DNA of 62,141 bases, counting the filler, from Hausera hauseri (Eukaryota): NCBI GenBank assembly GCA_046269625.1. It is 12 parts of 12 records of this genome, joined end to end, with 100 filler letters (N's around TTAATTAATTAA, not from the genome) between each part and the next. Parts side by side here need not be neighbours in the genome. Positions count along the whole stretch, not along the records: positions 44,234 to 52,504 come from JBJURY010708769.1; 11 more parts are not named here. The stretch is one strand, 5' to 3'. Shown piece by piece: positions 22,131-61,684 of the stretch. The notes beneath the pieces are model-generated. The model was not told the origin of the DNA, searched no databases, and saw nothing but the letters and a program-made list of their open reading frames with translations. Within the stretch, counting starts at the first letter, position 1. The number at the start of each line of letters is the position of its first letter. The translations under genes and the position numbers were made by a program.

Positions 22131-22313
22131 TTTATACCTGGTCGTCCTTGTAGTTTGCCGTACGTGATTCTTTTCCATCAATCCTTCCAGGGAAAAAAAT
22201 CCTGTCTTCATGGAGGCTCTCGTTTTGACTTTCTGTAAATCGCAGATCTTCATTTCTGTCCCCAAACGTTTCCTTTTTTATGAACCTCCGTACCTTTTCC
22301 TCTGTTCTTTCCT

Positions 22314-23822: not shown

Positions 23823-23983
23823 AACAGATTTATTATAAAAGTTTTATAACATTTAACTCCTTCACTCGGGAATTGGGTCTTTTTTTCCTTCTTTTCTGAA
23901 TTTCCTGACTTTATGTTGGCTGTTTATTGAATTATCTTTGAATTACATTTAAACGTTAATATACGTTTCAATTCCTCCTCACA
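23753..23983 (-). repeat. 5' LTR, followed directly by PBS TGGCGACCAACG (23741-23752)
   Basis: TGTGAGGAG...TACTAACA|TGGCGACC. Confidence 0.92.
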
Positions 23984-31459: not shown

Positions 31460-33276
31460 ATCTTACAAAAAATTAATCTTAACCTGCAATTTTCTCATCT
31501 TGTATTCGATTTGTTTTGTTATAGAGCAAAAATGCTAAAAATCATCCCTTCCTTATTCAAAAAACATAAAAATACTAAAAAAACTAATTTTAATCCTGAT
31601 TCAAATTTTATAATTAATTTTACTCATCCAGTCTTTAATCACATTAAAATTAATCAAATTATTAATAACAACAATATCCATTTTCCTCTTAAATCTGTAA
31701 AAATTTCTAAAACCTTTAAATACCCATCTACTCTTGGACGTACACTATTTAACTATAATTCTGTGGCTAGGGATAGTAGTTCTAAAGATTTTCCATGTTT
31801 ATGTAATGATTCACAATATTCAAAATTTGTTAATAACACTTTTGGTCATATAGTTACTGGTGATCTTTCGATTATAAAAAATAAACAGCTGAAAACATAT
31901 ATGGGTTATGGAACTAAATACCGTCTACCATCCAAGCATACTCATACCTCTATTTTATTACAGTTCTTGCTAGATTTAGAACAATTTATATATAATCTTT
32001 CAATTTATTATAGTAAACTCCCTGAATATTTCTCTGTCTGGAAATATAAGTTACTCGAATCCTTTAAATATAAACACTCGTTATTTGACTTAAAATCCAA
32101 ATTCCTTAATTTCAATAAATTTTATAATGAAATAAAAACTTAAAAAACAATTTTGTTATATCTTATGTTGACAAAGCTCCCAATAATTATGCGATTATAT
32201 GTAAATATTTTTATAAATCTCATCTGAATCATTTTCTAAATTCTAATCCTTCCTTTAAAAAAATTAATACTAAACTTGAAATTAATAATAAAAAAATTCT
32301 TGCTTTTCACAAATTGATGAAAATAAATTACCCTAATTTAAATTATCCGTATCTTACTATTATTCCAAAATTTCATAAAAACCCTATATGCTTTCGAACT
32401 GTTACTGTAGGATGTAACTCTTATAATAATAATGCAAGCAAAAAACTTTTAAATATTTTCCAGCCTCTACATAAATTTATAACTTCTACATACTCAACTC
32501 CTATTATAAAAAATAGCTTTCAATTATTAAAGAAAATTAAAGCACTTAACAATGTAAATAATATTTTTACATATGATTTCAAAGACTTATTTAATAATAT
32601 TAATATTAAAGATTTATATTTTGTTATTACTACTCTATTTAAAAATAATTACAAGAAAATTAATTCTCTCAGTGATTTATCTTTAGATTCATTTAAAACT
32701 CTTTTAAAATTTAATTTATACAATAACTATCTTTTCCAAAATAAATTTATTTATAATCAGATTAAAGGTATTCCACAAGGTGGTTCATCTTCCAGTATTC
32801 TAGCAGATTTATATCTTGTATATTATGAACTTAACACATTTAATAACAACCAGTTAATCTTTAGATATCTGGATGACATTATTTCTTTTAACTTAAATAA
32901 TTCATCATTTGACTTACCATTTTCATATCCATCTGATCTTGTTATTACTAAAAATTTAATGATAGATAATTCAATTTCTTTCCTTGATATCAAGATTTCC
33001 ATCACAAAAAACAATAACTTAATAATCAATATTTATGATAAAAAATCTTCCTTTCCCTTTAAAGTTAATTTTCTTACTAACTTCTCTTCATGCATGCATA
33101 AATCTGTATATCGAAATATCATTTTAAATTTATATTTTCGTATATTAAGAATTAGTTCAAAAAGATATCTTAAGCCAAATGTATACAATTTATATAATCT
33201 TGCTATATGTAACGAATATCCATCAGCCTTTATTGAAAATATTCTTTGCAATCTTAAACAATTTAAAAAATTTTAA
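31460..33276 (+). mobile_element. Penelope-like retroelement RT, Naiad-type (CxC linker then C-terminal RT); 5'-truncated, one frameshift near 32143
   Basis: PCLC..FGHIVTGDL, VDKAPNN, IPKFHKNP..FRTV, YDFKDLF, GIPQG, FRYLDDI; no C-terminal GIY-YIG. Confidence 0.85.
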
Positions 33277-38506: not shown

Positions 38507-39115
38507 TTATTCATGGAAAATACGATAATCAACACCATCCTTTGTTATAGCCCTAATACGAACAACACCACCACTGTGACCATCTCTACTTATTGCCAGG
38601 AAAACAGCCTTACGCACCATTTCTATACATTCTTCCTTATTCATATTTTCTCTGTATTCATTGTCCAAAAACCCATAAATGAAAGTACTACCCGATCCAC
38701 TGATTGCCACTGATTCTCGTTGCAACATTCCTCCAAGTGGAATTGAGTAAAGTTGACCACCTTTCACGTCATCATATCCACCTACAATTATCCCAGCAGA
38801 CAATCGATCTCTATATTCATAACAAAGATTTTTGAAAACAGTTGCAGCATGCAGAACAGTTGGTTCGGTATCAAATTGCATGGCATGCAAATTGAGGCGG
38901 TATTTTACTATGTCTGCCAATGCCTGAGTATCGGCTGCTGAACCTGATCGACAACAATAGATTGAATCTCGGAGTTTTGTCAATTTATCACTGACTCGAT
39001 TTGAAATATACGATCCTCCAGATGTTCTTGAATCGGCCCCAATTACTACACCACCATCGAATGCAATGGCAACTAATGTTGTTCCCATACTGATTGGTTC
39101 TGATGAGTTGTACAT
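38507..39115 (-). CDS. PSMB6: Proteasome subunit beta type-6 (beta1), 202 aa, intronless
   Basis: Propeptide ending MG|TTLVA (catalytic Thr1), GADSRTS, CRSGSAADTQ, SGSGSTFIYG, RDGHSGG; ATG at 39115. Confidence 0.93.
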   Translation of the reverse strand: MYNSSEPISMGTTLVAIAFDGGVVIGADSRTSGGSYISNRVSDKLTKLRDSIYCCRSGSAADTQALADIVKYRLNLHAMQFDTEPTVLHAATVFKNLCYEYRDRLSAGIIVGGYDDVKGGQLYSIPLGGMLQRESVAISGSGSTFIYGFLDNEYRENMNKEECIEMVRKAVFLAISRDGHSGGVVRIRAITKDGVDYRIFHE

Positions 39116-39979
39116 TTTGATTTTTGTTTTTAAATGATTTCGTTTAATATTGATTTGGAAACAATTTTTAATTTTCCACTTTTTCAATATTTTAATGCAT
39201 TTAAATATTTTGTGATTTATTAAATTAATTTATGTTTTAAATTTTTAATTTAATTTTATCTAAATTTAATTTAAAAAATTAATGAATTAAATTAAAAATG
39301 CATAAATTGAATTTAATTACATTTAATTAAAGGACGTGAAGTGATTATTCGAAAACTTACAAGCAACACTATTGGAATGTCCGTTTCAGAAGTCAATAAA
39401 ATTTGTCATGTACGCAGATATCAATTTTACAAGAATTCTACCAAAATTTTAGCTACAGTAATTTATTTATTTAAAAGATTTGTTTAAATTAAAAAAATTT
39501 TCTTCTATTCAATTTTGTTTGTGAATACTGAATGCAACTGGACGCTGAAATTATCAAATGTTGAACAGTAATACGCAATTTTATCATTCATAAATTTTGC
39601 ATTTATTGTGTGTGTGACATATTTGTCGTTGTGCATTGATGATTAGTTTGTTTGCATCATTATTACAGTATTGCATATGGATAATACATACAACCAAATT
39701 ATGATAACACCCCAACGCATTTAATCTGAACTTTCGTCGTGCAATTCCATTGTAGTACTTTTAGTATTATATTTGTGCTATTAAATTAGCCTTATATAAT
39801 AGTATCTGAGGGTTGAACTTTTGAGTTAGCTTTTTGCTCAAGTAGTTTAATACCAGCTTGATGCTGTTTTCTGTGTCTTNNNNNNNNNNNNNNNNNNNNN
39901 NNNNNNNNNNNNNNNNNNNNNNNTTAATTAATTAANNNNNNNNNNNNNNNNNNNNNNNNNNNNNNNNNNNNNNNNNNNN

Positions 39980-42880
39980 TTGACGAGCTCTGGTGTCCAA
40001 TATATAAGCTTTTTCTTCGGCCCTGCTCCTAGTTGAGCGAAAGGAGCAGTTAACTGACTGCAGTGTGGGACGTATTTATGGACAAAATGTAAAGTCCCAA
40101 GAAAACTGCGCATATCAGTAGTGGTTTTTGGTGTCTCTATGTTTCGTAGCTGATGGATTCTACCAGGCTCTGGACTGTGACCGTCAGGTGTGATGACGTG
40201 GCCAAGGAAATGTGCCTTTTTCTGAAAGAAGGAACATTTAGAAAAGTTCACTTGCAAATTGTGGTTGTGCAAGAGTTGGAAAACTAGTCTGAGATGTTCT
40301 TCGTGTTGTTTGGGTGATGCAGATGCGACTAGTATGTCATCAATGTTTGTATATAAAAATGGCAAGCCTGAAAGAACTGAGTCAATGTGCCGTTGGAAAG
40401 TTTGTGCTGCGTTCCTTAAACCAAACGGCATGAATGCGTATTCGAAAAGACTGTAAGGTGTTATAATGGCCGTTTTTGGTATATCTTCTGGTGCTACCGG
40501 TATTTGGTGGTAGGCTTTTTCGAGATCTATGGTTGAATAAATCGTAGTCTTGTATAACGAATGCAATATATCCTTAATCAACGGTAGAGGATAAGCATCC
40601 ATGGTAGTGATATTATTAAGTTGTCAATAGTCGCCGCATGGACGGAACGAGCCATCTTTCTTTGGGACGACGTGGAGTGGTGATGCCCATGGTGATTTAG
40701 AGCGTTTTATGATGCCGGCTTGCTCGAGTGCAGAGAATTCCGCTTGTACTGCCTGTCGACGGCGTGGTGAAAGTGGGCGGAGTTTCTGTTTAACGGGCCT
40801 AAAGTTTTCTGTGACGATGCGATGAATCGTCGTGTTAGCCGGTCGAAATTCTGGGTCTTTTTTATTGTGTGAAAACAAGACTTGACTAAGTATTGCTGCA
40901 TTTCTTGGCTAAGCATAGTAAAGGATGTTTTTGTCACGGCAATGGTTTGATTGGACTTAGCATGTGAAATGCTAGAGATTGAATCGTCTAAATCGTCCTT
41001 GTGAACGCTTTTTTGTTTCTCTGTTACTGAACTGTAACAAAATGTTTGATTATTTATATGGGTATTAATCGCGTCCTTATTTGCGTTAGTTGAAGGTTCT
41101 TTTAATATCGATTTTATAAGTGAAATAGGTTGCGTGACTTGTTGGTTATTTAAAGAGGTGGGTTTTGTTGGACTGCTCTTGATGATCTGACGTTGCCTAC
41201 AATCTACAAAGAGGTTGTAGAAAGATAGGAAATCAGATCCAAGTATTGGCGATTGTGTCGGCAACGATGAATGTCCAATTGAAAATGTCGGGGAATGATG
41301 GTTACGTGAATGAAACTTTGGATGTGCCAAAAATGTGTAAAGCTTGGCCGTTTGCCGTGTATAGTTTGATGTTAGACGGTGAGATGGATAGTGTTTTGAT
41401 GGATGGTGGTAATGAAGAAACAGTAGCTTCTGAGTCAATGCGAAAGTTGATTGGTTGATTTGAATTGGACGTTAAGGAGGCTTTTAATGTAAAAACAGCG
41501 TTTGTGCGGCTGTAGCAATTACGAGGGTAGCCTTTGCCAGCCTGCGCCGGAACATCTGGCGGCTTTATCAGTTTTTTGGATAGAAGGATTTGGTGACTCA
41601 GGAGAATTACGAATGGATTGGTTAAGTCGACTGGAAAACGTAAAACCGTCGACGCACTTCAGGGTTTTGTTGCCGAACCTATTATGGTAAATGCAAACGA
41701 TATCGGATTTTTGGAAGGCTTATGTATAGAATTTACACCCAAGGCAACATTTGCTGGATTGGTTTTTCAATTTATTGTGATAATAGCACATCATAGGTCG
41801 AGTAGGGGACCTAGCGAATCTAGAATTTTGTGATGAGGCACGGCTATGATTAGGTGTGAATCGATTTCGTCGCAGCATGGATAACTTGTCCAGTTTGGAA
41901 GTTAGAGCAGAAATGGCTTGGTGTATTGCAGTGTTTTCAGCTCGGCGAGTGTTTATTTGATTACTCAGCGCTAAGATTTCATCATTGTGTGGTGTTATAG
42001 GCGGTTGCAATGTGGCTTCGACGATAGGAGTATGATGTGTATTTAGTATATCGTAACTTTTATCAGCCAGTTGTGCTAACTTTTCTAACGTAGCGGTATC
42101 TTCAAATACTGTTAGTAAAGCGCGTATTTCCTTCGGTAGTGATTGAAGGAAATATCTGCGCAATAAATCGGCGTTATTGGTTTCATTTACTCCAAACTTG
42201 CTTAATTGAGTCAAGGATGTTTGTAAAAATTCAGATGGTTTTAATGTGCCTATTGTGTTTTCATTGAAATATTTCTGGATGATGTTACCAGATAAGGTTC
42301 GGTGAGTTTTAGTACGGCGTTGAAAAGTGTTTCGTATGGGTCTACTGTCTGAAAAATATCGGAAAGATTTGGTAGTAGTGACTTAAGGTTGGCTGGTAAA
42401 AGTATTAATAGGCTATTGGCTTTGAAGAAAGGATCACTGACCTTATTTGATTTTAACCACTGCGCATGGAATTCTAGCCATGTACGACTGGAGTGTTGTT
42501 TATTTGTAAAATAGTCGACACAAGTGAAATTGACCGAAGAGGATGCTGCAGGTGGGACTGAAGGAGACTACTTTAGCGTAACATGTATGGTGGGAATGTC
42601 AATAAAATCTTGTTGTTCCAGAGAAGATGCTTTTGAGTCAGATTTGCCTAGTAAACATTAATGTGCAGCTAGTATAGGCGTCAAAGATGAGCGTGTATAG
42701 TTGGTAATAATATCGGATTGCTGCACAAAGAATCCGTTAAAGCTGAGACGGAAATTAGTCTGTAATGCTTCTCGTTGTAGAGCCCCGAACAAATGTGCGA
42801 TGGTTGCTGTTTGGTGTATATAGTGTGTATGTGTGTTTATTTTTAAGTGAGAGTTAAAAAAGTGAAGTTTGCAAATATGT
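39980..42880 (-). mobile_element. Ty3/Gypsy (Mag-like) UBL-gag, protease and RT; degenerate; same family as 52640-57859
   Basis: SSRTWLEFHAQWLK, LLRRYFLQSLPKEIRALL, CYYHNK..C..GC, SPWASPLHVVPKKDGSFRPCGDY, MPFGLRNAAQTFQR, NIDDILVAS. Confidence 0.92.
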
Positions 42881-43284
42881 CGGGTGTGCAGATATGTTTA
42901 TTTTGTAATAGAAGAGAAATAAAGATGAAAGTGTGTGTCATTTTAGGGGTACAATGCGTCACCGGGGACAAGGTCGCACCAAAAGTCCCTATATCGTAAT
43001 GACTGATCTTTTTAACCAGAGGAATCGGAACGGCAGTCGAGCACGAGATCATTGGGTTTATTTGTTGTACATCACGTAACCGAATTGTTATTGACTGAAT
43101 AAAATAAGGTTGAGGTGGAATAAACCGTTTTTGAAATTTTGAAATTATCTTTATGGTTCCGATAGTCGATTTCGAAGTTTCGGGTTTGTTTATTCTAAAA
43201 TTCGATCGAAAATATTCAAAAACAGTTAGAAATTCAGCAATTTCAACATGGTGTAAATATTCACGGACATATATATATATTTAG

Positions 43285-43480
43285 CAAATGCTGAATATTT
43301 CGTCTGAAAATAGTTCCCTTAATGTATATATCTCCTTTTGATGGCAAACATTTTTCAGAAATAACATTTAATAGTGTTGATTTTCCACAACTATTCGGTC
43401 CAATAATAGCCGTAATGTTTAAATATTTAAAAATGGTCGATACATTACGTGGTACTGTTTTTCTCGGTGAATTGACTGTA
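43285..43480 (-). pseudogene. ABC transporter NBD fragment (Walker A)
   Basis: My translation: RNVSTIFKYLNITAIIGPNSCGKSTLLNVISEKCLPSKGDIYIKG. Confidence 0.8.
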
Positions 43481-44649
43481 AAATACTATTATACTGTCTC
43501 GACGACTCACCAATTTTATTGCCTGTCGATGAGTATTTTTCCAACGCCCTATAGGTATTTTCTGTCGCTTGCTCTTATTTTTTTAAGAAATTTGCGAATC
43601 ACATATTGTAGTTTGAAATCGGCGAAATTTCGAAGTAAAATCGGAATTATGTATATGCTGTGATGTGTTGATTAAATGGTATATTCAACCTTAACGTTAA
43701 ATGATATGGCTGAGTTTGTATTGACTCTGGTCACGATTAGCAAATACTTCACTAATGATTCATTGTTCTCAATAAACAGCGAGGTTTGGCCAATGTCAAA
43801 TATTGGGGAGGTACTTGAAATATGCATAAAATAATTTGCATTCTTGCCTAATCCGTATGTATAGGGATGGAGAATTTGCGATGTTAAAACGATGGATAAA
43901 TAGTACGGTAAGTTATTTGGGCTTATTCGAATTCGACAATGACCACTACGTATAATGAAATAGGATGTACGTGTATAACAAAATTCAAAAGTAGTGGCTG
44001 CCGAGAATGTATTAAAATTGTTAGAGTTTTTGATAAATTTGGGCACAACTTTTTATTTCCAATATATTTACTATATGCTACTGCAAAATATATAATAGTC
44101 TTACATAGTTCTCCTTTACTCAAAGCCACTTTTNNNNNNNNNNNNNNNNNNNNNNNNNNNNNNNNNNNNNNNNNNNNTTAATTAATTAANNNNNNNNNNN
44201 NNNNNNNNNNNNNNNNNNNNNNNNNNNNNNNNNTGTAAGAAATAAGTAAAATAGCTGTTGTAGTTTCGTAAAACAGTGCAGCTTGAGCTAGTTTAGTAAA
44301 TATGGTTTAGAACCAGTTTTTTAAAGAGAATAGTTTGTATCGGCCTTTAAAAAGGTACAGGCCGATGTTGGGTCCTCTGGAGTCAGTACTCCTTTACTTA
44401 TCATTCGTTTATGGAGGAAACATTCGAATTTCACATTTGTGACTTTTAGGTCAGACACAGTAATGATAAGAGAGAATGGAGTTGACTGTAAGGTTATGTC
44501 TAGTTCTTTGATGACTTTCTTTTATACTATTTGTGTGGTCACTATTCTTGTGACGACATGTATGATGCTGGTCTTATTAGGGTAGTTGTTGTTATTTCTT
44601 TTGGAAATCTTTCTATTATATCTGGTCCCTCTGATGCTTTTGACCATGT

Positions 44650-46440
44650 CCATTTGTAATTTGATTTCCATAGGTTCAATACCATATAGTATATTCTCTA
44701 TCGAAGGATATGGGGCAGCATAAATAAGGATTTTGATAATCTGGTTTACATTTTATCGTGTCAGTTTTATTAAATATCCGGTATTCTAAAATTCGATGTT
44801 TGAATTGAAATGTCAGGTTGCGCTGTTACACAAGGTCATTCTTTTTAACTTTTGTGTAGAACATAACAAGGAAATCTGGTTTATTGAAGTAATATATTGT
44901 ACCAGGAAACGAATAATATGATCTATGCCATTTTCCATTTGTCCTTTTCCCGACCGCATATTGAATTCTATACGATATGTCATATGAAAGTACACACAGA
45001 CATGAACAATGGTTGGCATATATATATCACAAAATTCTGGAGTGGCCACTTGTGATGTTCATACTTTCTATATATGTATGCAACATGATCTTGTCTCCAT
45101 GTTTGAAATTATGTGGCTTAGCTTTTTCGTCATATCAGTTTTTATATTCTTTCTGACAAATCTTTATGTTGTGCAGCTAAATCCCATACATATCCTAGAT
45201 TTTCTTTTAACAGCTCTCNNNNNNNNNNTCTCTATATTCCATAAATTTCAAATGTGAGATTTGTGTTTTAAAAACCAAATCAATTGACATGAGCGTCTCT
45301 GAGGTACATCAAATATAACGGAGCCTCTTGCATCAGGATGAACGGTATTTCTGATAACGTATAAACAAGGTTTGATATTCATCCTAATCATCTTGATGTT
45401 CATTGACCATCGTGGCTGGCATAGTGAGGATTCCATTGAATTTTTCTACTGTTCCGTAGATTTGCGGATGATACAGCGTTGTCTTTAAATGTAATATTCG
45501 GAATGCCTTTGAAATTTTCGCCATGACTTCTATAAAATTTAGAGCTTGGTCTGTTAGTAAATTGGATGGTGTTCCATAATTAAATGCAGTTTCTTCTACA
45601 AATGCGTGAGCAATAGTTTGGGCTTTCTAGACTGGTGTTGGGGTTACGACTGGTTGTCTGGAAAATAAGTCAACAAACACTAAGTTATACTTATTTCCTT
45701 TTAATGTCATAGTGTGCCTAGAATGTCCATTACTGAAAATTCCATTGGACATTCTAGTGATTTAAGAGGTACTTTGACTTTTGAGCCCACATTCTTCTTT
45801 ATGCACAAATGGGGCAACTTTTACACCATTCTTGCACCTATCTTGACATGTTGTACCAAAAATATTTTCTTTTCAGTATGCCCAATGTTCTTTTTACTCA
45901 TTGATGTCCTCCGAGCATACCATCATGGTATTTGGTCATTAGTAACTTTATGTCTTCTTGAGGGACAACTACAACTAATTTTCCCTTCTGGTTATTGTAC
46001 AGTACTTCATTCCTTGTTTCGCAGTTTTCAGCAAATTTCACCAGATGAGCATGAAGATTGGTATCATTTGGTACCGTTTTCTTTTGTACATATTATTTAA
46101 TTCCTTTTATTTGTCTATCATTTTGTTGTTTTCTAACAATGATTTTTCTTTTTCTGTAATACTCCAAACGCCTGGTTTATCCGCTGATTGTTGAAGGTCT
46201 GTATCTTCAGGAATTCTTGTTTTTCCAGTTTTGTATTCGAATTTCAAATTATAAGGCTGGAGGAGCATAGCCTATTTCATTAAACGGATGTTTGGATTTT
46301 TGTGCTTCTTCAACCACTGTAGTGGTTTCTGATCAGCGTATATGACAATTGGTTTTGTTTCTGACAAATACGGACCATATTGCTCCAGTGCATATACAAT
46401 TGCGAGTAATTCTCGTTCAATGGTAATAATTTCTTTCATA
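44650..46440 (-). pseudogene. Ty3/Gypsy pol remnant: RNase H and integrase; PR and RT absent
   Basis: TIERELLAIVYALEQYGPYL..YADQKPLQWL; GNKYNLVFVDLFSR; YGTPSNLLTDQALNF. Confidence 0.85.
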
Positions 46441-46519
46441 TTTTCTTAACTTAACCTACAAACTTTTACGTTTCTTCCTACGAGCAGTGATTAAACTCCA
46501 TATCTTTTTTGTATTCAGA

Positions 46520-49258
46520 GATGAATTTGAGTGATACTTGGTTTTTCTTATTTTCTGTATTGGATGCACATTTCCGTTATCATTAAAGTGGTCTTTATTA
46601 TATTTTTTTGTATCCATTCAGCGTCCTTCTTTATTAGGAAACAAGTGGCTAAGAACAGAATCAGAACGTGGATAATTTTCCATGTACATCCTACAGCCTG
46701 TTTTATGCCATAGCCTTTGGTTATCATAGTACGGATTGTTTTTACAAAGGCGAATATAACAGAATCCTAACCATCCGGAATTAAACTGGCCAAACAACAT
46801 GTACCATCCCCATGCGGTAGCGAATATGTCTAGCGATTCTTCTTGCGTATTCGGGTCCCATCAGGTTTTCCCAATTAGCTTTTCCATCGTGATCGGCTAG
46901 AACTCTTCCATTTCTGTTGACTTTCAGTCTTTGTTGAGGAAACATCATTCTTCTATGGTTTTCCATATCTTGTTCAGAATATACGCACATCTTTACTAAA
47001 TTCATGTCAGGCTTATACTGTTGTTCAGTCTTTAAATTGATTCAGCTAATTCTTCGAGGCGGGATAATCTGCTCCTCTTTAGGCATTCGAAATGCTGGCG
47101 ACTTCCTATACGTACAATTTTGGTATATGTATAGTTTTCCACAAGATCCAACAGTATTCGAATAATTGGTTGTAAAAATCGTGGCTTGGTATTATACCAA
47201 ACTGATAATTCCATGATGCATTCATTAATTGGTCTTATCTTGACAGTTACTCTAGTACACTCGAACGTTACAAGAGTTCCTTCCATTGTTCGTGAAAATT
47301 TTCCTTCTGCATCAGGTAATTCAGCTTGATCCTTTATTATCCCATCCGTTATTGTGGACATATATATCCTGTTTCTGATTATTTCTCTGTTCAGCTTGCA
47401 ATCATTTAATACTATTTCTCCATACATAACATAAATATTCTCTTGTTGAAAGTGATAAATGAAATGAATCTTGTCAAAATATAGATGCGGTTTCACTTCT
47501 GATTTATCAATTTTTCTTTTTACTTCTTTTATTTTGATTGCTGACAAAAATATTCCTTTATAATTTGTTCGATATACTACTTGTGCGCATCTGTTCGTAT
47601 CACATTCTATTTTGAATTTCATTCCTTCTCTGGGATTCGCTGAATATACAGTGTCGCTCAAATTAATTGCATAATGATAATTTTGGGATAAGTTGGTGGT
47701 ATCTGTATTAGTTTTACGTGGTTTTCATATTTTTAAACATTGAAAGCAAGGTAGTTGTGTAAAATAATTGAATAAGTTGTATAAATGAGAATCAAATAAT
47801 TTTATTTTATTCGGTTTCTGCGTACGTTCAAATTATTTGCATAATTTGTGGTTTTAATGTTTTCCACGCAATGGATACACTCATAGCTACACAATAGTTG
47901 ATTACTAAGAAGTTTCATGAATGACCCAAACAGTTATTGCGTAGGAGTTACATCAGATTCAAAGTAGTGTTTCGCGTATTATTTCACGCTACAAATTCCA
48001 TAGAATTGTTCGAGATCTGAGACCAGGAAAATGTGAATGAAAACGATTTCTCTCACCCTGAACAGACCGTCTGCAAGCACGTGCTTCTAAGAATAACCCC
48101 AAAGCTACTGCTGCAAATATACAAAAGGCAGTTGGTTGTCAAGCAAGTACAGTGAGCCTCCCCGCTATCAGACGCTCACTTCGTCGCTCAAATCGATTGG
48201 AATAAACAGATCTCAAATCACTAACTTAGGTTTCTCGAATTCGTGTTTGTCTCCAATGGTGCCTTGTGCATCGTTATGTCAGTAGAGGATTGGAAAAAAG
48301 TATGACGAATTTTTAGAATAATTTTTAAAGATTTTTAAAAGAATTATTTTTCTAAGCTTACAATTCACTATATGGAGGTTGTGTTCACTGATGAGAGTAC
48401 TGTAGATGTGAACCCTGCGCACTCTCAGTTTGTACGACGCGGTCAAATGAGTCATTAAGTCTCGTGCATACCTCGCAACATCGTCCATATGTTCCTAGAG
48501 TCATGTTCTGGGGTTGGACGCTCGATCGTATCTGATATTCGATCCTGTCTGCTTTTTGATATTTCCTCTATACATTCGTCTTTTTGTTTCATTGAATTTT
48601 CCATTTCTCAATAAGGCTAGTTGACATTGATCCTTGTCAACTTCATATGCCATTATCGATTTACCCGTATTACATTCTTCATTGTAGTAATCACACTCAG
48701 GGAATGTCACCATTTTTCCTGATGATAATTCAAAAAGAGCATCATACTCTCAGCTCAACTTGGTAGTCCTCAATGGTTACCATATCGAACATTTCAACAT
48801 TTATATTGTAAGATTCTCCTTTACAATAGCCTGTTTTATCAATTGTTCCGACTATGAAAATTCTCTTATTGGTAACTTCTTTTTTGAGCCTTTAACCGAA
48901 TGCTACCGATGTTAATTTGTTTTGTCACAAAAACTATGCACATCCATTTACTTATCGAAAGTGGCTGGAATGGGGTGGTTGGCTCTACTATGGCTGCGTT
49001 TCCGTACCAGTAACCGCAAATAAAGTGGAAGTGATTCTTTCGTACAAAAGATTCTTTCGCTTTAGTTTTTACAAATTCTGACTCTTGGTAAACAATATTC
49101 TTTTAGTTAATGATGTCGGATTAGCGTACGGGCATTTTTCTAAATCCAACAGAAAATATATCGGAACTTCTTTGACTTGACTAGTCATAAGCAATAATTG
49201 AAGATGATCTTGACATGAAATTAAATAACAGAAGTATGTGTAGAATTTTAATTACCAT
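46520..49258 (-). pseudogene. Complete-length degenerate chuvirus-like glycoprotein, interrupted by an insertion at ~47649-48500
   Basis: MVIKILHILLLF..IIAYD; CAQVVYRTNY; CIMELSVWY..FLQPIIRIL; VYSEQDM..MMFPQQR; WGWYMLFGQFNSGWLG; C-terminal hydrophobic segments. Confidence 0.85.
47649..48200 (+). mobile_element. Tc1 5' fragment (TIR plus HTH region) inserted at TA in the glycoprotein gene
   Basis: TA|CAGTGTCGCTCAAATTAATTGCAT; SSVSRIISRYK..KNNPKATAANI..IRRSLR; copy A is uninterrupted at the equivalent site (~14410). Confidence 0.75.
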
Positions 49259-49259
49259 A

Positions 49260-51720
49260 GGCAGATCAAGATCAGATTACTGATTATGCTGTCTTTCTTG
49301 CTAGGGGTGTAGGTTTTCTTTTTGCCTGAACAACAGGTGCATAATCTTGTACCGTTGTTTGAATGAAACTATTGATCCATCTCTGCACTTTACTTACCTT
49401 TCTACATTAGTTGTCAATGCTCTTGTGGCTATTCCTATACTTTTTCTATTTCCTTGGTTTGAGTTCGAACCATTCATCACCATTATTTTATACAGGAGAT
49501 ATGATGTAGCTGTTATAATTTTACTTCTAGACATGCCTGTTCCCATCATTCTAGATAGTACATCTCTCTTGTATCTCACTTATTTTCTCATCTATAGGAA
49601 TATCTGCAAATTGCTCACTGATTTTTATTTCATTTATGCTTATCTGCATCAGTGAGTCTGGTATTTGTAAGTTTGTATTAAACTCAACAAACGCATTGTG
49701 CATTCTAGTTAACAAAGTTTGCAGTAATGTTGGCAATGAAACATTACCTTCATCATTCTCATCTTGAGTTATTAATAATCTTCGAACAACTTCATCGTCT
49801 CTTGCTTTTCTGCCTTTTAGTTGCTAGAGTTTTGTTATGCCTTTGGGTCTACCTCGATTTTTTCTATCAATTTGAGTCTGTTCTGATATAGGAATATTTG
49901 TTTCAATTCCTGTCTGCTGAACTTCATAATTTGGTTAAGTTTCTTATATCTTTCTGCCTAAATTCAGTAAGGGTTTCATCATTTATTTTTTGCCTAATTT
50001 GTCTGAAGGCAATTGCAAACAGGATCATATCTGGTTTCCCGCATACGTACTTCGCATATGGTTTCGTAACATAAGTGTCCGTTTATAAAAACGTAGTTCT
50101 AGCTCTCCTCGAGACTGGATTACCTCGTTAATCTTGTTTTTCAATGTAATTATCGTATATGACGACTTCATCCTTATAGCACGAAGGTCCTGATTGTGCA
50201 GTTTGAGAGTAACTACTATTTGAGGCTTTTTCCGACCGGTCTAACTCTTTCTGCATACCGATAAATTATATATCGTACAGGGTTTTGATGTGGACTTATC
50301 AGCAGCATATATTAGGAATAAGTTTAATAAATTAACACTGTTGATAGCTAACCGCAGGCAACAATAACATCGAAATAACCTGTCTGAATTGTTTGTCATC
50401 AATTAATTCTTGGTTAGCATAGCTTGATATTTTCCGAACTATTTCTGTACTGTTTTGATCCAAATCCACAAATAAGGTTTCTCCCTATTGTGCTGCTATT
50501 TTGACTTTCTTGTTTCTTATTCACTTTATCTTTTCACTGTTTATTTTTCATGCTTCCTTTACTTCCAGAAGGCAAATAGGGAATTTTTAAATGTTCTCTT
50601 ATAAAAGGTTTATCTTTTCTTTTGGCCTTTTGCACTTCAGCATCTGATTCTGAGGATAGATCCTTTCAAGTCTGACTACGGGAACAATAATTGAATTATT
50701 GTTATTCATTTTGTGTCGTTTTTCACAAATTTCTTGTTGCTTTAATTCTAACTATAGCACCTTTAATTCACCTACTTTATCTTCATCATCTATCATATTC
50801 GTTTTATAATCCTTCAATTTAGCTCTAACCTTTTGCTGCAGCTTTTCTACAGTATCCTCTGGTTCGGTATCCGGTTTCCTGTTCATTATCTGTAACAGAT
50901 ATATTACCAATCATCTCAATATTTTTCTTTTTCATGTTTGGCTGCCCTTCGTTAGGACAAGAACGGGCCATGTGTCCATATTTCTGACAGGCAAAATATA
51001 ATTTTTGTCCATTCTGATTAACCATTGGTTTCCTCATTGCTAGTTTTTGAGGCTGACTTTGAAAAGTAACCATCTAAGGGTGTCCTGGCCGGTTCTGAAA
51101 TTTTTTCAATTTCTCATCATTTTAGGAGGCCTTTGAACATTTTCAAGCCTTCCATACTTAACTTCAATCTTTCTGACTTTACTGACAGCTTCTTTATAAG
51201 TGTCAGGGTCAACAACACTAATATAATTCTGAATTTCTTTTGTTATTCCGTACAAGAACTGGTCTTAGAGAGCATCTTCTCTTATGTCTTCATCTGTATC
51301 GGCTGTAAGCCCATTTCTGAAGGACACATGCATATTCTTGCACGGTATCGCCTTTTCGCTGACGTCTGTTGAATTTCCCAATTCAACCTTTTCCTGACGG
51401 ATCTACTATGAGTTTTTCCTCCATGAGCTCTAAGGCTATCCCAATCAGCTTTATTCTGATCCTCTACTTTTGCGTAAGAACTGAGTGCTATCTTTGAGAT
51501 GAAGTGGAAGGCGTTTTATCCTGAGCTCGTCTGTCCATCCAAAGCTTTCTGAGTACATGTGGTACTGCATCAGGAATTTGCTGTAGTCCTGGTCTGGTTT
51601 GCCTTTCAATTTGTTCATCGACAAAACAATTGTGCATTCCTACCTAAGCTAGCACTTAATCCTAAACTAGACATCTGGGGTTTTTCTTATTCAGACCCGG
51701 ATGGTCTTCTAGCCGAGTCC
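49260..51720 (-). pseudogene. Copy B of gag-linker-UBL-AT-hook-helical region
   Basis: Collinear with 15200-17700; FACQKYGHMARSC; RKNRGRPKG. Confidence 0.8.
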
Positions 51721-51788
51721 GAATTTTCTGTTATATTATTAGCGTGTATATTACGTTTGTTTTACAAATTTGCAACGCCAGCGTGTCT

Positions 51789-51805
51789 CCTCACTCGGGG
51801 CAACA
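51789..51805 (-). promoter_or_regulatory. Primer-binding site (copy B)
   Basis: TGTTGCCCCGAGTGAGG at the position equivalent to 17806-17822. Confidence 0.6.
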
Positions 51806-52639
51806 GTATTAAGTTTAAAAATCTGACAGTCTGGGTCTCGGCCTTAAATTTAAAATTTACTTTATCTAATTAACAACCTGTGGGTTACTAAATGTTTTGA
51901 TCTTATTGTGTGAGTTGATCACTAGAAGGCACACTAGCGATACTCTCCTCTTATTTATCTTGATTTTAAACACTCGAACCTTAATGGACGGGATACCAAA
52001 GTCTGCCCTTAATTTTAGATATATGGTTTAATTCTACTCAAAAACAATTTAGTTTAACAAAAATATTATGATAACAGCTCGCTAACAGGATAAATAAATA
52101 AACAAATGAATGAATGAACAGATGATACTCAAAATTGTCACTTATTTCTGACAAATATTGTTTGAAAATCGTAATTAGTAAACTATACTCGAACCTAAAT
52201 TCCCAATTCGATTATTATACCATAATACATATATCAGGTGATATTCCGGATTTCAATCTCCTTCAAAATAATATTTGCAAAGGTGGCAGGTTGTACTCCG
52301 AGATTCAATATGCTAAATTAGCTGTGTTTCCTGTTACCAAATATATGTAAAGAAAATAAGACAAGGTCAAACTTTTAATCTATGGTAAAAATGATTTATA
52401 TAATCTTATCATTGGAAAATATAGAATAATCAATTACATCCATTATGCATTGTTTGTCAAGCATTAAACAAAATTAAGTATACTGTTGTTTTTAGTTACA
52501 TTCANNNNNNNNNNNNNNNNNNNNNNNNNNNNNNNNNNNNNNNNNNNNTTAATTAATTAANNNNNNNNNNNNNNNNNNNNNNNNNNNNNNNNNNNNNNNN
52601 NNNNATGAGCTAGCCTTGGACTGGTACTTTGCGTTATAG

Positions 52640-54305: not shown

Positions 54306-56204
54306 TCATAATCCTATAGTGCAGTCGTCTGTAGTTGCAGAAATAAATCGTAATAATCCAAATAAGGCGTAGGATTTGAAAGTATCCGTTTTATGTATAC
54401 GATTATTCAAATATGTTTGAAATAATTCGTTAATGTAATTAACTCTCAGATATGACTTACCATTACTGTTTAATATTGTACTCGCTCTGAAGTTTCTTGA
54501 CCCTATCATCCATTCCAACCAAAATGTTGACTGATACGGACGAGTAACGTTGTATGTGATCGGTTTTAGAGAACACGACTTTTCAGTATTAATTGATTCT
54601 TTTAAGTGATTTAAGTTTGATTGAAGATGTTTGAAAAGAGACGTAAGACAATCTGTAATATTTCGAAACGACAATAAGTCTTTAGGCCTTATGTTTGGTT
54701 TCAGTGGTTTGCAAAACTTGACTGTTTCTACGTCCTTTTCGGTTAATAAATTAAGTAGTATGCAGAACATTAAATCCGAAACAGGAAATTGTCTAACCGA
54801 TAAAATTTGTTTAGTACATTTAAAAAATGAATCAAAAACGCTCAATTCATTTGTGCAATTCAATCCATCATTGCTTATTATGTTTTTAATGTCACTGTGA
54901 TCACAATAATTGTAATAAATAATGTAATCTATAACTGCTGTTCCAAATGTATAAAGTCCGGGAATATCGAGTGCTGAATAAGTCCTTACACCATTTAGAT
55001 CGTTTATGTAAGCAGTATCAACGCCAAACTGTTTGTAATGATCTTTAATATGAAAGTCCAATGCAAAAAAGATGATATTCCTAATGAACATTTGTTGATT
55101 TTTAGATTTACCAGGATTGATAGCAATTATGTTACCTCTGAGAACGTTTATAGCTTTATTAGCATGATTATTTAAAATTGGTAAAACATAGTATGGTGGT
55201 TGAACATCACCGATTTCATTATTGGTTATAGTTTTATTTTCATTTAATATTCCATTGTGCTGCGCTACAATGACATCAGATAAAAACTTTTTGGTATATG
55301 TTTTATATTCTTCACACATTATACTAAAACTCTCTTTGATAGCAATTCTGTCTTTGGATTTTAAACAACTAGAAAAATTATAATTATTGAGATTTTGATG
55401 AATAATTATTTCACAATATATCACATTTACCTCTTCTTTATCGTTATTTGAATCCAAATCATGAAACAAATCACTGCTTTCAAACGCCAATCCCGTACAA
55501 AAATTAGCTGAATTAACACCGTTTTGAATTTCTCGAATAAGACATTGAAAAAAGTTATTGAACGTTTCATAGCTTTCCATATCGATTGCATACACACTTG
55601 TCATTTCGGGGTGTGTTACGTGCGGATATACAATGGTCATTAGAATGATATTATTTCGTGTCTTTTTATTTTCGTACAGTATTGCTATTTCATGGTTTAA
55701 TGCTTTCTTCAATGGACAGTAATACTCATACACATTGTATATGAATTGCTCACAATTAACTGCATCGCCTACTGCAACGTCCTCCGCCAATTTAACAATA
55801 TCATAATGCCCATTATCCATTTTCTGAAGAATTCTCAATGGTTTGGTAAAGGCAAATTTTTCAATGACAAAATTGTAGATGTCGCTAAGAGTTTTGCTAC
55901 GAGAATAGCAACAAGTTACTTTGTTTTCTTTTCCACAAATAGAAATAGTAATGTTCAATGGTTGAACCTCAACGGTGTAACTATCGTGACTGAGTATCAC
56001 AAATCTTTCGAAAAGTTCTTGGTTATCACAATCCAGTTTGTATGTTTTCACAAGATATTTCCAAACTTCTTCCGGTACCAAATCGTAGTGATCATTCAAC
56101 AACATATCACCATTAACTTCTTTTGTTGCATCAAGCAATTTGCTGTTACTAATTGGTGGCAAATTTTTTCTTGTCATCCGTAACAAATATTTAAGTTGAT
56201 TCAA
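54306..56204 (-). CDS. Chimeric 632-codon ORF (first ATG 56177): USP4/11/15 DUSP-UBL, phosphagen kinase, CLU, BACK and probable further fragments
   Basis: PPISNSKLL..YDLVPEEVWKYLVKTY..VEVQPL; PLKKALNHEI..VYAIDMESYETF; GNIIAINP..QMFIRNIIFF..NDLNGVRTY..GLYTFGTAVIDY; NIISNDGLNCTNELSVFDS. Confidence 0.75.
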   Translation of the reverse strand: MNQLKYLLRMTRKNLPPISNSKLLDATKEVNGDMLLNDHYDLVPEEVWKYLVKTYKLDCDNQELFERFVILSHDSYTVEVQPLNITISICGKENKVTCCYSRSKTLSDIYNFVIEKFAFTKPLRILQKMDNGHYDIVKLAEDVAVGDAVNCEQFIYNVYEYYCPLKKALNHEIAILYENKKTRNNIILMTIVYPHVTHPEMTSVYAIDMESYETFNNFFQCLIREIQNGVNSANFCTGLAFESSDLFHDLDSNNDKEEVNVIYCEIIIHQNLNNYNFSSCLKSKDRIAIKESFSIMCEEYKTYTKKFLSDVIVAQHNGILNENKTITNNEIGDVQPPYYVLPILNNHANKAINVLRGNIIAINPGKSKNQQMFIRNIIFFALDFHIKDHYKQFGVDTAYINDLNGVRTYSALDIPGLYTFGTAVIDYIIYYNYCDHSDIKNIISNDGLNCTNELSVFDSFFKCTKQILSVRQFPVSDLMFCILLNLLTEKDVETVKFCKPLKPNIRPKDLLSFRNITDCLTSLFKHLQSNLNHLKESINTEKSCSLKPITYNVTRPYQSTFWLEWMIGSRNFRASTILNSNGKSYLRVNYINELFQTYLNNRIHKTDTFKSYALFGLLRFISATTDDCTIGL

Positions 56205-56683
56205 CCGAAATTACACCAACACTATTTCTTCATTTGATGATTCATTTGTTAATATTCTGACACCAATTTATGATTCCGTAACGTAGACAAAATGCATTTA
56301 AGAAAAGAAAATCCGAAACACCAAGAAAACTGTATTAATCAAATTCAATTTTTTTGTTATTAAAAATCTATATTCATCAATTACATATTTTCTAATTTAT
56401 GTGTATAATACAAACCAAACCTTATGAATTGTAACCTTTCATTGTAACCTTACAATCAAACAAGCATCAATCACACACAAAAAAATCATCTAATTCAATA
56501 AGAAAAAGAACGAATAAGAAAACACCCGAAAACTAAAATTGGCAACTATTGAATGTCCGTTACTGGTTCAAAAATTACAACGCAATTTCGTCACTATCAT
56601 CTTGCTTGAGATTGAAATAATTTTTTGGGATAGTGAAGATTTGATTGTTATCATATTGTTCATTATCTCCCTTTGGAAGAGGG

Positions 56684-58625: not shown

Positions 58626-61529
58626 TTAATAAAAGTTACCTCTAATTAATCTCTCAGCGTCAATTACTGAAAACAGCCAATATTTTAATTTTTTCAAAAA
58701 TAGTTTTAAAGGAAGCTCTGACAAACCACTAGGAAGCGTGTTGAATAGCCTCGGGGCAATGAAACTGTAAGTAAGGGAGATAGTGGTCCGAGAGGGCCGA
58801 GGAACAAAATAAGACATACCGCTTCTCAAATTGCTGGCGTAATCAGTTATTGATTGACGTTTTTGGTCACCACTACGTATAAAGAACATCCTTAGCACTT
58901 TATACACATATAAGTGTCTTAAAGGTAGTACATTGAGATCTTTAAAGATTGCAAAGGAAGGAGATGTCCTGGGTCTTTTATTAATAATTCTGACGAAGTG
59001 CTTTTGTAATAGGATTAAGTTTTTCATGTGACTTATATACGTACCCCCCCAAAACTCAATCCCATATTCCAACCTAGATTGAATCAAAGATGTGAATACA
59101 TTTTTAAGGATCAACCTAGGGCATAGGTCACGCAAGAAATAAAATTTCCTGATATATGACTGTAAACAATTATTTAATTCCCTGCAATGATCCTCCCAAC
59201 TAAGATTTTCATCCACATTTAAACCAAGATATTTTATTCTGGAGGAATAGGCTACCCCTGGACAGTCACAATTGGCCTCCAGATTCCGACATTTACAAGT
59301 CATTTGATGGCATGGAATAATATTGTAGTTATTTACTGTATTTATTCTGCTTAGATGGAAAATAATATACTTAGTTTTATTGAAGTTAATTAAGAGTTTA
59401 TTTTGGGCACACCATTCATTGATAATCACTAAATCACTAGAAATGCCCGACAGCACCCCTTCCACACAGGTACTCGAGTATGAGAGAGCAACATCATCGG
59501 CATAAGCTGTTATTTTTCCCTCGGTTTTTAAAGTAAAAATATCATTAATGAAAATACAGAAAAGAATCGCCGCCAGTACACTTCCCTGAGGTACGCCATA
59601 TCTAACAATACCAAAGCCGCTCAAATCTCCCTCCACACTCACACATTGTCTTCTTCCCGACAAGAAGGAAGTAAACCAGTTCAAGGGCATGCCCCTCACC
59701 CCAGCGTGGTACAGTTTATCCAATAAGATATCAATGTCCACCATGTCAAAGGCTGCCTTCAGATCCACAAATACACCCCCAGTCTTATGGCCTTCATTTA
59801 TGTCAGAATACACGCTGGAGAAAAAGGAGTTAAGAGCATCAATAGTACTCTTGCCACTCATAAACCCAAACTGTTTAACATTGAAAAAGTTGTTACTGTC
59901 CAAGTATGATATCAGGCGCTTTTTCATGATCTTTTCTATAATTTTCGAAAAAACTGATAAGAGAGAAATTGGTCTGTAATTTTCACATTTACGACGGTCA
60001 CCCTTCTTATATATAGGAATCACCTTTGCTACCTTCCATCCCTCAGGAAAATCTCCAGATTCAAAACTTAAATTTATTATAAACTTAAGAGGGGATACTA
60101 TATACAAAAAGGTCCTTTTCAGAAAATCAGAACTGACCCGATCAAGACCAGGTGATTTTTTGCTTTCAAGGGAATTGATAATAGTTATAATTTCATTTTC
60201 GTTAGTAGGAGTAAGATAAAAAGAGTTTGATGGGGCCTCCAAGCGATTTATATAATTTATATTTAATATATTAAGTTTATTGGAATCAGCAACGGAGAGA
60301 AAATGTTTATTAAATATTTCAGCCTGTTCTAAAGGGTTAGTTATAATTTTATTATCATCTTGCAGCTCCAGATTACCTCTATCTTTAATTTCGCCTATTA
60401 AATTTTTGATAACAGACCAATGCTTAGATGTATTTTTACTTTTAAAGTTGAATAAATTATTATAGTAAGCATATTTAGCGGTTTTTAATTCTGTATTTAA
60501 TTTGTTTCTATATCTAATGAAATGATTTTTTATATCAATATTATTTGGATGTTTTATCAGTAATTTGTATAAAAATTTTCTTTTTTCAATTTTATTATAT
60601 AAGTAGTCATTCATCCACGGCTGTATTTTTTTATTTTTATATTTGTCTGTTTTCCTGATTAGTTCTGTACAGAGACGTACGTACTTTCCAAGTCTGTCAG
60701 AAAAAAGTTGGGCCGCTGTAGAAGCGTTCCCACATAGTAATACATCAGTCCATTCCTCAGCCTCCAACAGGGGGCATAATCTATCGTAATTAATCATACT
60801 TATTGAAAAAGGTTTGTCAGCTGAGAGGGGAGTGCCAGGAACCATCTCCGTATTCACCATCACCTCCAATAAGGCGTGATCAGTAATACCGATCTGTCTA
60901 ACATTCATAGATATATCGAAAGTATAGTTTCTAGATTTTTTGAATCTAACAAAAATGTGATCAATGCATGACGACCCAAAACCATCCCCTCTTGTAGCTA
61001 TGTTAATATCATTCATCAAAGACAATCCATTCGCATACATCATATTCATGTAATTTTCAATTACATCACTATTCCCTGCTAGGTCCAGGTTCATGTCCCC
61101 GGCCATCAGGAGATTATCCACGCGAATATCATCCAAAATGCTATTCAATTCATCAATAAATACAATTGGGGCAACCCTGTGCAACCGATACACCAACAAA
61201 ATATGAATTTTAATTGATTTAAAGACACACGTTACTACAAGACAGTCAGCAGACGTCATTGAAGGCGTGTGTGTTAAAATATCAACATTTTTCTTTGCAA
61301 AAACAGCAACCCCACCCGACCTGTAACTATTATTGCATTTAAAGAAGCCGTTATAACCTGACAATTGATACAACAGTCTCTCACTATCATTGATCCAGAT
61401 TTCTGTTAAAAGTAACAGATCCGGTAAGCCACTGTAAGTGGTAGTCAAAGTAGCTATGAAATTATCAAAATTAGCCCTGAGGCTACGAATGTTTTGCATG
61501 ACACAAACTATCCGCCGGTTTTCACACAT
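58626..61529 (-). CDS. LINE ORF2: APE endonuclease plus reverse transcriptase, 967 aa, intact
   Basis: QNIRSL, TEIW, GDMNLD, IDHIF, TDH; KSPGLD, NYRPISLL, DLKAAFD, GVPQGS, YADD, KYLG. Confidence 0.96.
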   Translation of the reverse strand: MCENRRIVCVMQNIRSLRANFDNFIATLTTTYSGLPDLLLLTEIWINDSERLLYQLSGYNGFFKCNNSYRSGGVAVFAKKNVDILTHTPSMTSADCLVVTCVFKSIKIHILLVYRLHRVAPIVFIDELNSILDDIRVDNLLMAGDMNLDLAGNSDVIENYMNMMYANGLSLMNDINIATRGDGFGSSCIDHIFVRFKKSRNYTFDISMNVRQIGITDHALLEVMVNTEMVPGTPLSADKPFSISMINYDRLCPLLEAEEWTDVLLCGNASTAAQLFSDRLGKYVRLCTELIRKTDKYKNKKIQPWMNDYLYNKIEKRKFLYKLLIKHPNNIDIKNHFIRYRNKLNTELKTAKYAYYNNLFNFKSKNTSKHWSVIKNLIGEIKDRGNLELQDDNKIITNPLEQAEIFNKHFLSVADSNKLNILNINYINRLEAPSNSFYLTPTNENEIITIINSLESKKSPGLDRVSSDFLKRTFLYIVSPLKFIINLSFESGDFPEGWKVAKVIPIYKKGDRRKCENYRPISLLSVFSKIIEKIMKKRLISYLDSNNFFNVKQFGFMSGKSTIDALNSFFSSVYSDINEGHKTGGVFVDLKAAFDMVDIDILLDKLYHAGVRGMPLNWFTSFLSGRRQCVSVEGDLSGFGIVRYGVPQGSVLAAILFCIFINDIFTLKTEGKITAYADDVALSYSSTCVEGVLSGISSDLVIINEWCAQNKLLINFNKTKYIIFHLSRINTVNNYNIIPCHQMTCKCRNLEANCDCPGVAYSSRIKYLGLNVDENLSWEDHCRELNNCLQSYIRKFYFLRDLCPRLILKNVFTSLIQSRLEYGIEFWGGTYISHMKNLILLQKHFVRIINKRPRTSPSFAIFKDLNVLPLRHLYVYKVLRMFFIRSGDQKRQSITDYASNLRSGMSYFVPRPSRTTISLTYSFIAPRLFNTLPSGLSELPLKLFLKKLKYWLFSVIDAERLIRGNFY

Positions 61530-61684
61530 TTGAGAGCAAAGTAAGATATATTTTTCTCTTAATTTCTTTTATCAATATATAAATAAGAGTGAAGATAAAT
61601 AAAAGTTCTACTATAACGATATAGTTCCATAGTTCCCTAGTATATGTTAAAGTAAAAACAAAACTGACCCATCCTCCGAAATCC

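Follow-up and report, generated by a model that had tools for sequence, protein, structure and literature searches.

Organization of the element

The DNA analysed here (the window) is a stretch of 62,141 nucleotides from the Hausera hauseri assembly GCA_046269625.1, composed of 12 contigs of 4.0-8.6 kb each that are linked by N50-TTAATTAATTAA-N50. A single contig of 8.3 kb with 35% GC (positions 44234-52504) carries the parts of a Ty3/gypsy-type retroelement, every part on the minus strand, among them a Gag capsid region, the envelope glycoprotein (GP) encoded by env, the C-terminal part of RNase H (RH) and an integrase (IN) (Table 1). These parts are interrupted by stops and frame changes, and Pfam was therefore run on frames with stops read as X. 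The contig very probably holds a dead copy of a Burro-like Ty3/gypsy long terminal repeat (LTR) retroelement with the native order gag-env-pol, in which a deletion took the protease (PR), the reverse transcriptase (RT) and the first part of RH, a Tc1-like fragment broke env in two, and point damage built up.

A database search with the GP identified P0001, a protein of 1130 aa that is 72% identical and runs as a single open reading frame (ORF) from Gag into GP, where it ends, with no pol in between. P0001 is collinear with positions 51633-47425 of the window, the identity per segment being mostly 47-85%, and its residues 25-178 match the dArc2 capsid (E 0.0068). The GP, a chuvirus/gB-type env, is predicted to adopt the class III fold of its family, PF24664 (Monjiviricetes_fusion), which matches P0001 from residue 793 onwards (E 6.3e-19), the second copy of the family on another contig (E 9.3e-21) and the window GP, where the E 6.3e-12 match spans 47032-47724. 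The second copy is truncated by the contig edge within GP and is therefore silent on gene order. RH preceding an H2C2 integrase and a gypsy-type Gag capsid with a CCHC knuckle are Ty3/gypsy features, and among solved structures the lineage profile matches Ty3 Gag-Pol best (E 2.8e-40). The PF00665 (rve) match on the integrase core, with an E of 5e-4, is under the curated cut-off.

The insert that divides GP is missing from both the second copy and P0001. It opens with TA followed by CAGTG and gives a weak match to HTH_Tnp_Tc3_2 (E 0.042); a Pfam scan of its whole frames gave no match, and its comparison with another transposase in the window was also null. In run X1, which is one study, possibly the source sample, and whose depths are not copy numbers, the depth over the insert is 31-46 as against 168-20352 in other bins of the element.

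Table 1. Parts of the element in contig 44234-52504 and the second copy of the family
Feature	Position	Strand	Evidence
Gag capsid region (Ty3/gypsy, Arc-like), broken	51127-51690	-	tblastn with P0001 residues 18-190, 47% identity
CCHC zinc knuckle (nucleocapsid)	50951-50995	-	PF00098, E 0.024 here and E 2.5e-4 in P0001
Small helical domain just before the ubiquitin-like domain	50225-50469	-	tblastn with P0001 residues 378-460
Ubiquitin-like domain	50015-50225	-	60-70% identity to P0001 residues 461-535
Bcl-2-like domain	49355-49745	-	67-79% identity to P0001 residues 622-760
Putative internal hydrophobic signal/anchor segment before the GP ectodomain	49184-49273	-	67% identity to P0001 residues 783-812
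GP (chuvirus/gB-type env), N-terminal part, broken	48513-49182	-	tblastn with P0001 residues 812-1040
Nested insert, probably a one-ended Tc1/mariner fragment	47649-48512	+	864 bp, divides GP
GP, C-terminal part with membrane segment and tail, broken	46503-47648	-	PF24664, E 6.3e-12 and 1.4e-4
Junction, putative deletion of protease(s), RT and first part of RH (~1.8 kb or more)	46440-46502	.	
RH, C-terminal part	46173-46439	-	PF17917 (RT_RNaseH), model positions 46-105 of 105, E 1.1e-11; P0004 residues 1688-1768, 40%
Integrase zinc-binding domain	45763-46020	-	PF17921 (Integrase_H2C2), E 1.3e-15 (45966-45793)
Integrase core and start of C-terminal region, broken	45048-45710	-	36% to P0004 residues 1923-2143, 112-117 bits; 10-N gap at 45219-45228
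Second family copy on another contig: Gag, helical, ubiquitin-like, Bcl-2-like, GP	13875-17684	-	69-77% nucleotide identity to 47087-51619

Gene order in relatives of the element

When 1.84 billion representatives were searched in full by HMMER with the GP, 57 matched; 19 of these, together with three members of their clusters, were annotated with Pfam. P0004, P0009, P0030 and P0058 carry GP-PR-RT-RH-IN within one ORF, and P0015 follows the same order as far as RH. GP is followed by PR in P0005, P0007, P0008, P0010, P0012 and P0018, P0080 being a further case, and a zinc knuckle or a gag domain lies ahead of GP in P0007 and P0012. P0058, which is 4844 aa long, also carries ankyrin repeats. Among the 86 proteins examined, 61 have GP, and 13 of these 61 also have PR, RT or IN; GP comes first and in the same ORF in all 13, a tally that counts near-duplicate pairs such as P0012/P0060 and P0010/P0080.

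Out of 593 candidate stretches, the second metagenome scan yielded at least three loci. L003 is complete, with Gag-CCHC-GP-PR-RT-RH-IN in an ORF of 2693 aa, L001 is a 5'-open ORF of 3426 aa that extends from the accessory region through GP-PR-RT-RH-IN and has ubiquitin-like and Bcl-2-like segments before GP, and L002 covers Gag to GP. Scans of viral contigs, of genome contigs and of the first metagenome set found no relative, and a word-index search with P0001 returned only P0001 itself among 7998 candidates. Recruitment from run X1 gave 5591 contigs over Gag, GP, RH and IN, of which 124 are at least 99% identical and 3015 are below 90%. Both halves of the element thus have many relatives in this run, and a linkage of the two halves does not follow from it.

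The relatives show several further features. In L002, a lone in-frame stop at 3058-3060 lies between a 999-aa Gag-to-Bcl-2 ORF and the env signal and GP, the frames being otherwise open; this stop would be either damage or a site of readthrough by which the ratio of Gag to Env-Pol is set. L001 has a separate 496-aa ORF 3' of the polyprotein (10617-12107) with a match to the RNase_T exonuclease family (E 1.4e-5), and LTR elements of rotifers are described as having third ORFs that encode a DEDDy exonuclease (PMC5408684). In several relatives (P0058, P0007, P0009 and L001), env is followed by two to six repeats resembling aspartic proteases, and IN by a membrane-anchored extension. The database entry of the env-pol polyprotein P0004 names it a hypothetical protein from a Flavobacteriaceae metagenome-assembled genome; the DNA is probably eukaryotic and mis-binned with a bacterium.

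The junction between GP and RNase H

Junction profiles were built from seven natural relatives, the 685 positions of the RH-side profile covering 330 aa before RT, RT itself, the connection and RH. In the window, homology to the GP tail stops at 46503 and RH homology begins at 46439 with profile positions 616-684 of 685 (independent E-value, iE, 8.6e-19), leaving a gap of 63 bp by profile, or of ~150 bp when counted from the last BLAST match at 46590. Positions 1-615 of the profile match nothing in 44234-47700; PR and RT are absent. The distance from the end of GP to the ExE motif of RH is 1893-5883 nt in all seven relatives as against ~100 nt in the window. There is no direct repeat longer than 30 nt within contig 44234-52504 and therefore no LTR pair. 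The two flanks of the junction are alike in base composition, and purine runs in 46420-46640 reach 9 nt at most. Summed depth in run X1 falls inside the insert and also past position 52033, and among the sites listed in 46535-46600 it goes down to 10-26.

The preliminary description had placed RH and IN on the same strand directly after the GP tail, and this is confirmed by Pfam, by the profiles and by the presence of GP, RH and IN within one contig. Its estimate of a gap under 100 bp is fair, and its statements that no recognisable LTR lies between GP and RH and that PR and RT are missing agree with the repeat and profile searches above. As to the extent of RH and IN, both are present as described, but RH retains only its C-terminal ~60% and IN homology stops near 45048, short of the 44650 given earlier, leaving 44650-45047 without an assigned feature.

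Relationship of the RH-IN region to the GP

The RH-IN region was compared with 18 control POLs obtained from a database search with that region (3222 candidates), none of which is close to it and none of which has a GP domain. In summed tblastn scores on the window RH-IN, P0004 (251 bits), P0059 (230), P0058 (229) and P0009 (220), of which P0059 belongs to the P0008/P0058 cluster and has pol only, exceed all 18 controls (166 bits or less). A first integrase-core tree of 24 rows contains five members of the env-pol lineage, 17 of the 18 controls and two window rows, P0076 being without the core. The window row is nested with P0004, P0009, P0058 and P0059 at 99/97, with P0030 further out, and the other gypsy element of the window falls among the controls. 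A second tree, computed under the simpler model LG+G4 with 17 controls, includes L001 and L003 and has neither P0059 nor the second window row. The five rows that lie nearest to the window integrase by path are of the env-pol lineage in each of the two trees.

In agreement with this, a GP tree of 49 rows, made by a quick method and excluding rows with fewer than 110 aligned positions, places the window GP with P0004, P0009 and P0058 (SH-aLRT 83), and P0030 again lies further out, matching the integrase trees. GP was used in place of Gag for this comparison, and the two share an ORF in P0001. The Gag-GP and RH-IN halves belong to one lineage and probably to one family.

Several observations weigh against a single gag-env-pol element with an internal deletion. 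No intact copy of the exact family was found in the searches made, and because of this the link between Gag-GP and RH-IN rests on relatives that are ~35% identical. Among the records listed from run X1 none bridges the junction, the post-integrase tails of six relatives match nothing in 44234-45260, and the LTR search found no repeat pair longer than 30 nt beyond chance in this contig, L001 or L003, the contigs being short and the copy decayed. The tally of 13 is biased, because gag-pol-env elements usually have a separate env ORF and cannot show up as fusions, and the control POLs were limited to 660-2100 aa. P0030 (119 bits) and P0015 (76 bits, without IN) score no better than the controls, and the score of the control P0061 is concentrated in a single stretch. 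In the second integrase tree, the window row is sister to P0004, L001, P0058 and P0009 at just 84/53, the env and control POLs are separated at just 75/75, and the branch of the window row is long (1.3-1.5).

The strongest rival, although improbable, is that RH-IN derives from another family, sister to this one within the env-before-pol lineage, and was joined by recombination or deletion across adjacent or nested elements, so that the native order would still be gag-env-pol and the locus would be chimeric. Families inside the lineage are beyond the resolution of the trees, the nearest integrase reaches no more than 37-38% identity, and thousands of related contigs exist in run X1, more than half of them (3015/5591) below 90% alike. 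The stop density is also slightly higher on the RH-IN side (12/396 codons, 3.0 per 100) than on the Gag-GP side (28/1388 codons, 2.0 per 100), although the counts are small. Against this, a single internal deletion accounts for the common strand, the collinearity and the lack of an LTR in fewer events, and the composition is equal on both sides.

A markedly less likely rival is that RH-IN comes from an unrelated gypsy element without env through nesting or deletion, and that the Gag-GP element is non-autonomous or has its pol elsewhere. Other gypsy families do lie in the window (18052-26641 and 39980-44133), and the weak support in the second integrase tree leaves room for such an origin. However, the five nearest rows are env-pol proteins in both trees while the other gypsy of the window falls elsewhere, the P0004 integrase scores 112 bits on contig 44234-52504 as against 51 bits on the 18052-26641 element, and in every relative that continues past GP into pol the pol domains lie downstream. 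Least credible of all is an assembly chimera of two repeat copies without any genomic deletion: the contigs are built from short reads, the family is rich in repeats, a scaffold gap lies 1.2 kb off and the junction is unbridged in run X1, but near-identical run X1 records of similarly low depth lie on either side (45349-45794, 3 differences, depth 8.5; 46957-47325, 2 differences, depth 5.9), no repeat is common to both sides to join them, and the conclusion on gene order depends on the relatives anyway.

The native gag-env-pol order with an internal deletion, as proposed in the preliminary description, is supported and very probably right. Seven relatives have 1.9-5.9 kb at the place of the junction. 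Of the two checks named there, copies extending past GP are found among relatives, which run directly into PR-RT-RH-IN in one ORF, and the agreement of phylogenies holds in that the integrase trees and the GP tree share the same set of relatives, with GP standing in for Gag.

Accessory domains between Gag and GP

The helical domain that precedes the ubiquitin-like domain is common to L002, P0007, P0004 and P0049. Its model has five helices and gives only generic HEAT-like matches, with Z up to 8.7.

The ubiquitin-like assignment comes from PF00240, with E-values of 0.031 in P0001, 3.9e-4 in L002 and 0.029 in the second copy, all under the curated cut-off, and from profile A6, for which ubiquitin-like chains (ubiquilin and ISG15 domains) rank first with a best E of 0.0019. 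A ubiquitin-like profile made without P0001 or the window detects the second copy only. The model of the P0001 accessory region (380 residues) is poor, with a predicted local distance difference test score (pLDDT) of 48.6 overall and below 50 in the ubiquitin part, which has a beta-grasp-like strand pattern; fold searches with this model gave no ubiquitin row, the listed rows being filled by the helical and Bcl-2 domains.

The Pfam Bcl-2 family matches P0001 with an E of 0.055 and P0006 with an E of 9.6e-4, and only Bcl-xL and Bcl-2 appear in the best 60 of 94 rows for profile A7 (best E 0.013). A Bcl-2-like profile of four relatives, made without P0001 and the window, detects both copies (iE 9e-4, and 1.3e-6 for the second copy). 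When the L002 Bcl-2-like model (pLDDT 77.8) was compared with 48,161 chains, Bcl-2-fold chains occupied the top 32 of the best 50 rows; the best match has a Z of 13.1 and a root-mean-square deviation of 2.7 over 134 aligned residues, and the first unrelated row has a Z of 6.2. Helical bundles may reach such Z values by chance in structure alignment, but a chance match is argued against by the uniformity of the list and by the independent sequence matches. Foldseek gave no match at an E of 0.001 or less for either model, and every listed row was of the Bcl-2 family. Atlas searches gave no usable match for the Bcl-2 part and, for the helical-plus-ubiquitin part, only leads below 0.9. The models support a full Bcl-2 fold for the BCL2-like motif of such elements: single sequence matches are weak, and the match of the L002 homologue at fold level is clear.

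The ubiquitin-like and Bcl-2-like domains occur as a pair in P0001, L001, L002 and P0049. P0005 and P0006, which are N-terminally incomplete, have the Bcl-2-like domain without the ubiquitin-like one, and P0004 and P0007 have the ubiquitin-like domain without the Bcl-2-like one.

Comparison with known elements

The preliminary description took gag-pol-env as the known order of retroviruses and errantiviruses; this premise no longer holds, since env before pol is described in PMC6431247 and in PMC13524379. In the account given in PMC6431247, which cites Jurka 2007 and Grohme et al. 2018, Burro/GYPSM1, giant gypsy-like LTR retrotransposons of planarians, encode Gag, two to three knuckles, Ubi2/SUMO-like and BCL-2 domains, a mononegavirus-fusion-like env and PR-RT-RH-IN in one ORF of 4873-5140 aa, and Burro is presented there as the first instance of an env placed in frame between gag and pol. 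The same domain series as in the window, ubiquitin-like and Bcl-2-like domains included, was already published.

The element shares with Burro a Gag with CCHC, a ubiquitin-like and then a BCL2-like domain directly before env, and, as seen in P0001, an env in frame with gag. An env in frame with pol is shared through the relatives only, since the junction is lost in the window family and P0001 ends within GP. Unlike Burro, P0001 has one CCHC instead of two to three, and no MATH, RING, BIR or ankyrin match lies between its Gag and env, the absence of MATH being read at E up to 1. A MATH domain ahead of the ubiquitin-like domain belongs to the S. mediterranea form, and the element of D. tigrina is likewise without MATH in ORF1 (PMC6431247). 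BIR, ankyrin and dUTPase domains may have lain in the part deleted here or may lie past the contig. Gag to the end of env is ~1450 aa here as against whole Burro ORFs of 4873-5140 aa, Burro having been compared by description only. With its single knuckle and no MATH match, the element is treated as Burro-like and is not filed as Burro.

GAG-ENV-POL gypsy elements with an HSV/gB-type env are described in Nematoda, Bryozoa and Platyhelminthes (PMC13524379), where the nematode cases are credited to Sacco et al. 2022; supplementary file 1 of that paper lists 9 flatworm elements (6 of Schmidtea mediterranea), 10 bryozoan elements and about 36 Nematoda rows. The element described here resembles them in its Ty3/gypsy pol, its gB/chuvirus-type env and the position of env ahead of pol. 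The main text of PMC13524379 contains no match for Bcl-2, ubiquitin, polyprotein or ORF fusion; its elements were compared by description, and the window copy is not intact. The element would work like Burro and shows the tested features of a GAG-ENV-POL errantivirus with gB-type env. Its env-before-pol order is already published, and what it adds to the Burro-like env-before-pol gypsy elements is a compact family.

Mosquito BEL/Pao elements with a chuvirus glycoprotein (Dezordi et al. 2020; PMC13524379) are alike in having a chuvirus-like class III glycoprotein on an LTR retrotransposon. In contrast to BEL/Pao, the Gag and Pol domains of the window and their best matches are of the Ty3/gypsy type.

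African swine fever virus (ASFV) A179L, the avipox proteins CNP058/FPV039 and the herpesvirus proteins BHRF1/KsBcl-2 are Bcl-2 mimics of large DNA viruses. The element resembles them in carrying a Bcl-2 fold on a virus-like element and differs in that the domain lies within a retroelement polyprotein and has 8-20% identity.

The protection that Burro1 reportedly gives to the stem cells of planarians comes from a RING-BIR region of the inhibitor of apoptosis protein (IAP) type, a domain different from the Bcl-2-like one (PMC13465017). The passages concerned in PMC8532177 and PMC11410931 merely mention Burro.

Other contents of the window

The window contigs contain mainly eukaryotic mobile DNA (gypsy, LINE-type RT, DNA-polymerase-B fragments and transposase pieces) and a proteasome beta gene. 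Their GC contents span 23% to 41%, and organisms may be mixed. A decayed ordinary gag-pol gypsy element (18052-26641, minus strand) has 160-bp tandem repeats inside gag and a 232-bp repeat pair (18956-19186 and 23753-23983) that may be LTR remnants, and a second integrase-like fragment lies on the plus strand at 18054-18970. Fragments of DNA polymerase B2 and endonuclease VII at 2753-3679, 5309-5875 and 26742-30921 are presumably Polinton/Maverick-like, and contigs 4128-8873 and 26742-30921 are 66% alike across 1.65 kb.

An unbroken ORF of 980 aa at 58626-61568 (minus strand) encodes the endonuclease and RT of a non-LTR retrotransposon, and an RT-like ORF at 32131-33276 (plus strand; RVT_1, E 1.7e-5) lies on a 23%-GC contig that is perhaps organellar. 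The proteasome beta-6/beta-1 gene at 38507-39229 (minus strand) is without introns and has human PSMB6 as its best solved match (E 2.8e-75), which says nothing on the host. An open ORF of 634 aa at 54306-56210 (minus strand) gives an odd mix of matches: DUSP, the N-terminal domain of ATP:guanido phosphotransferase, CLU and BACK.

Proposed processing of the polyprotein and its implications

An intact element would encode gag-env-pol in one long ORF, in the order capsid, zinc knuckle, helical, ubiquitin-like and Bcl-2-like domains, signal/anchor segment, GP, protease(s), RT, RH and IN. By analogy with viral polyproteins, general knowledge of which underlies this proposal, the single chain may be threaded through the membrane of the endoplasmic reticulum (ER). 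The internal hydrophobic segment (49273-49184) would direct the GP ectodomain to the ER lumen and the membrane segment of GP would bring the chain back to the cytosol, and signal peptidase together with the aspartic protease(s) of the element would free Gag, the accessory domains, Env and the Pol enzymes.

The Bcl-2-like domain of P0001 ends ~35-40 residues ahead of the hydrophobic segment. Because of this distance, the Bcl-2-like domain may become tail-anchored after cleavage, keeping the env signal segment as its anchor in the manner of cellular Bcl-2 proteins, and the putative Bcl-2-like protein would most likely dampen host cell death. In the literature searched, no test of the Bcl-2-like domain was found, the 2026 Burro1 study lying outside that coverage. 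There is a tentative and rather doubtful possibility that a compact Burro-like lineage, with one knuckle, no MATH and the ubiquitin-like and Bcl-2-like domains ahead of an in-frame env, extends over several unrelated metagenomes, maybe in non-planarian hosts, with an env signal that doubles as a Bcl-2 tail anchor to give a membrane-bound regulator of apoptosis like those of large DNA viruses. If the host is not a planarian, the cassette of ubiquitin-like domain, Bcl-2 and env would be wider and older than described, and a second anti-death module besides the IAP-type domain of Burro1 (PMC13465017) would be of interest.

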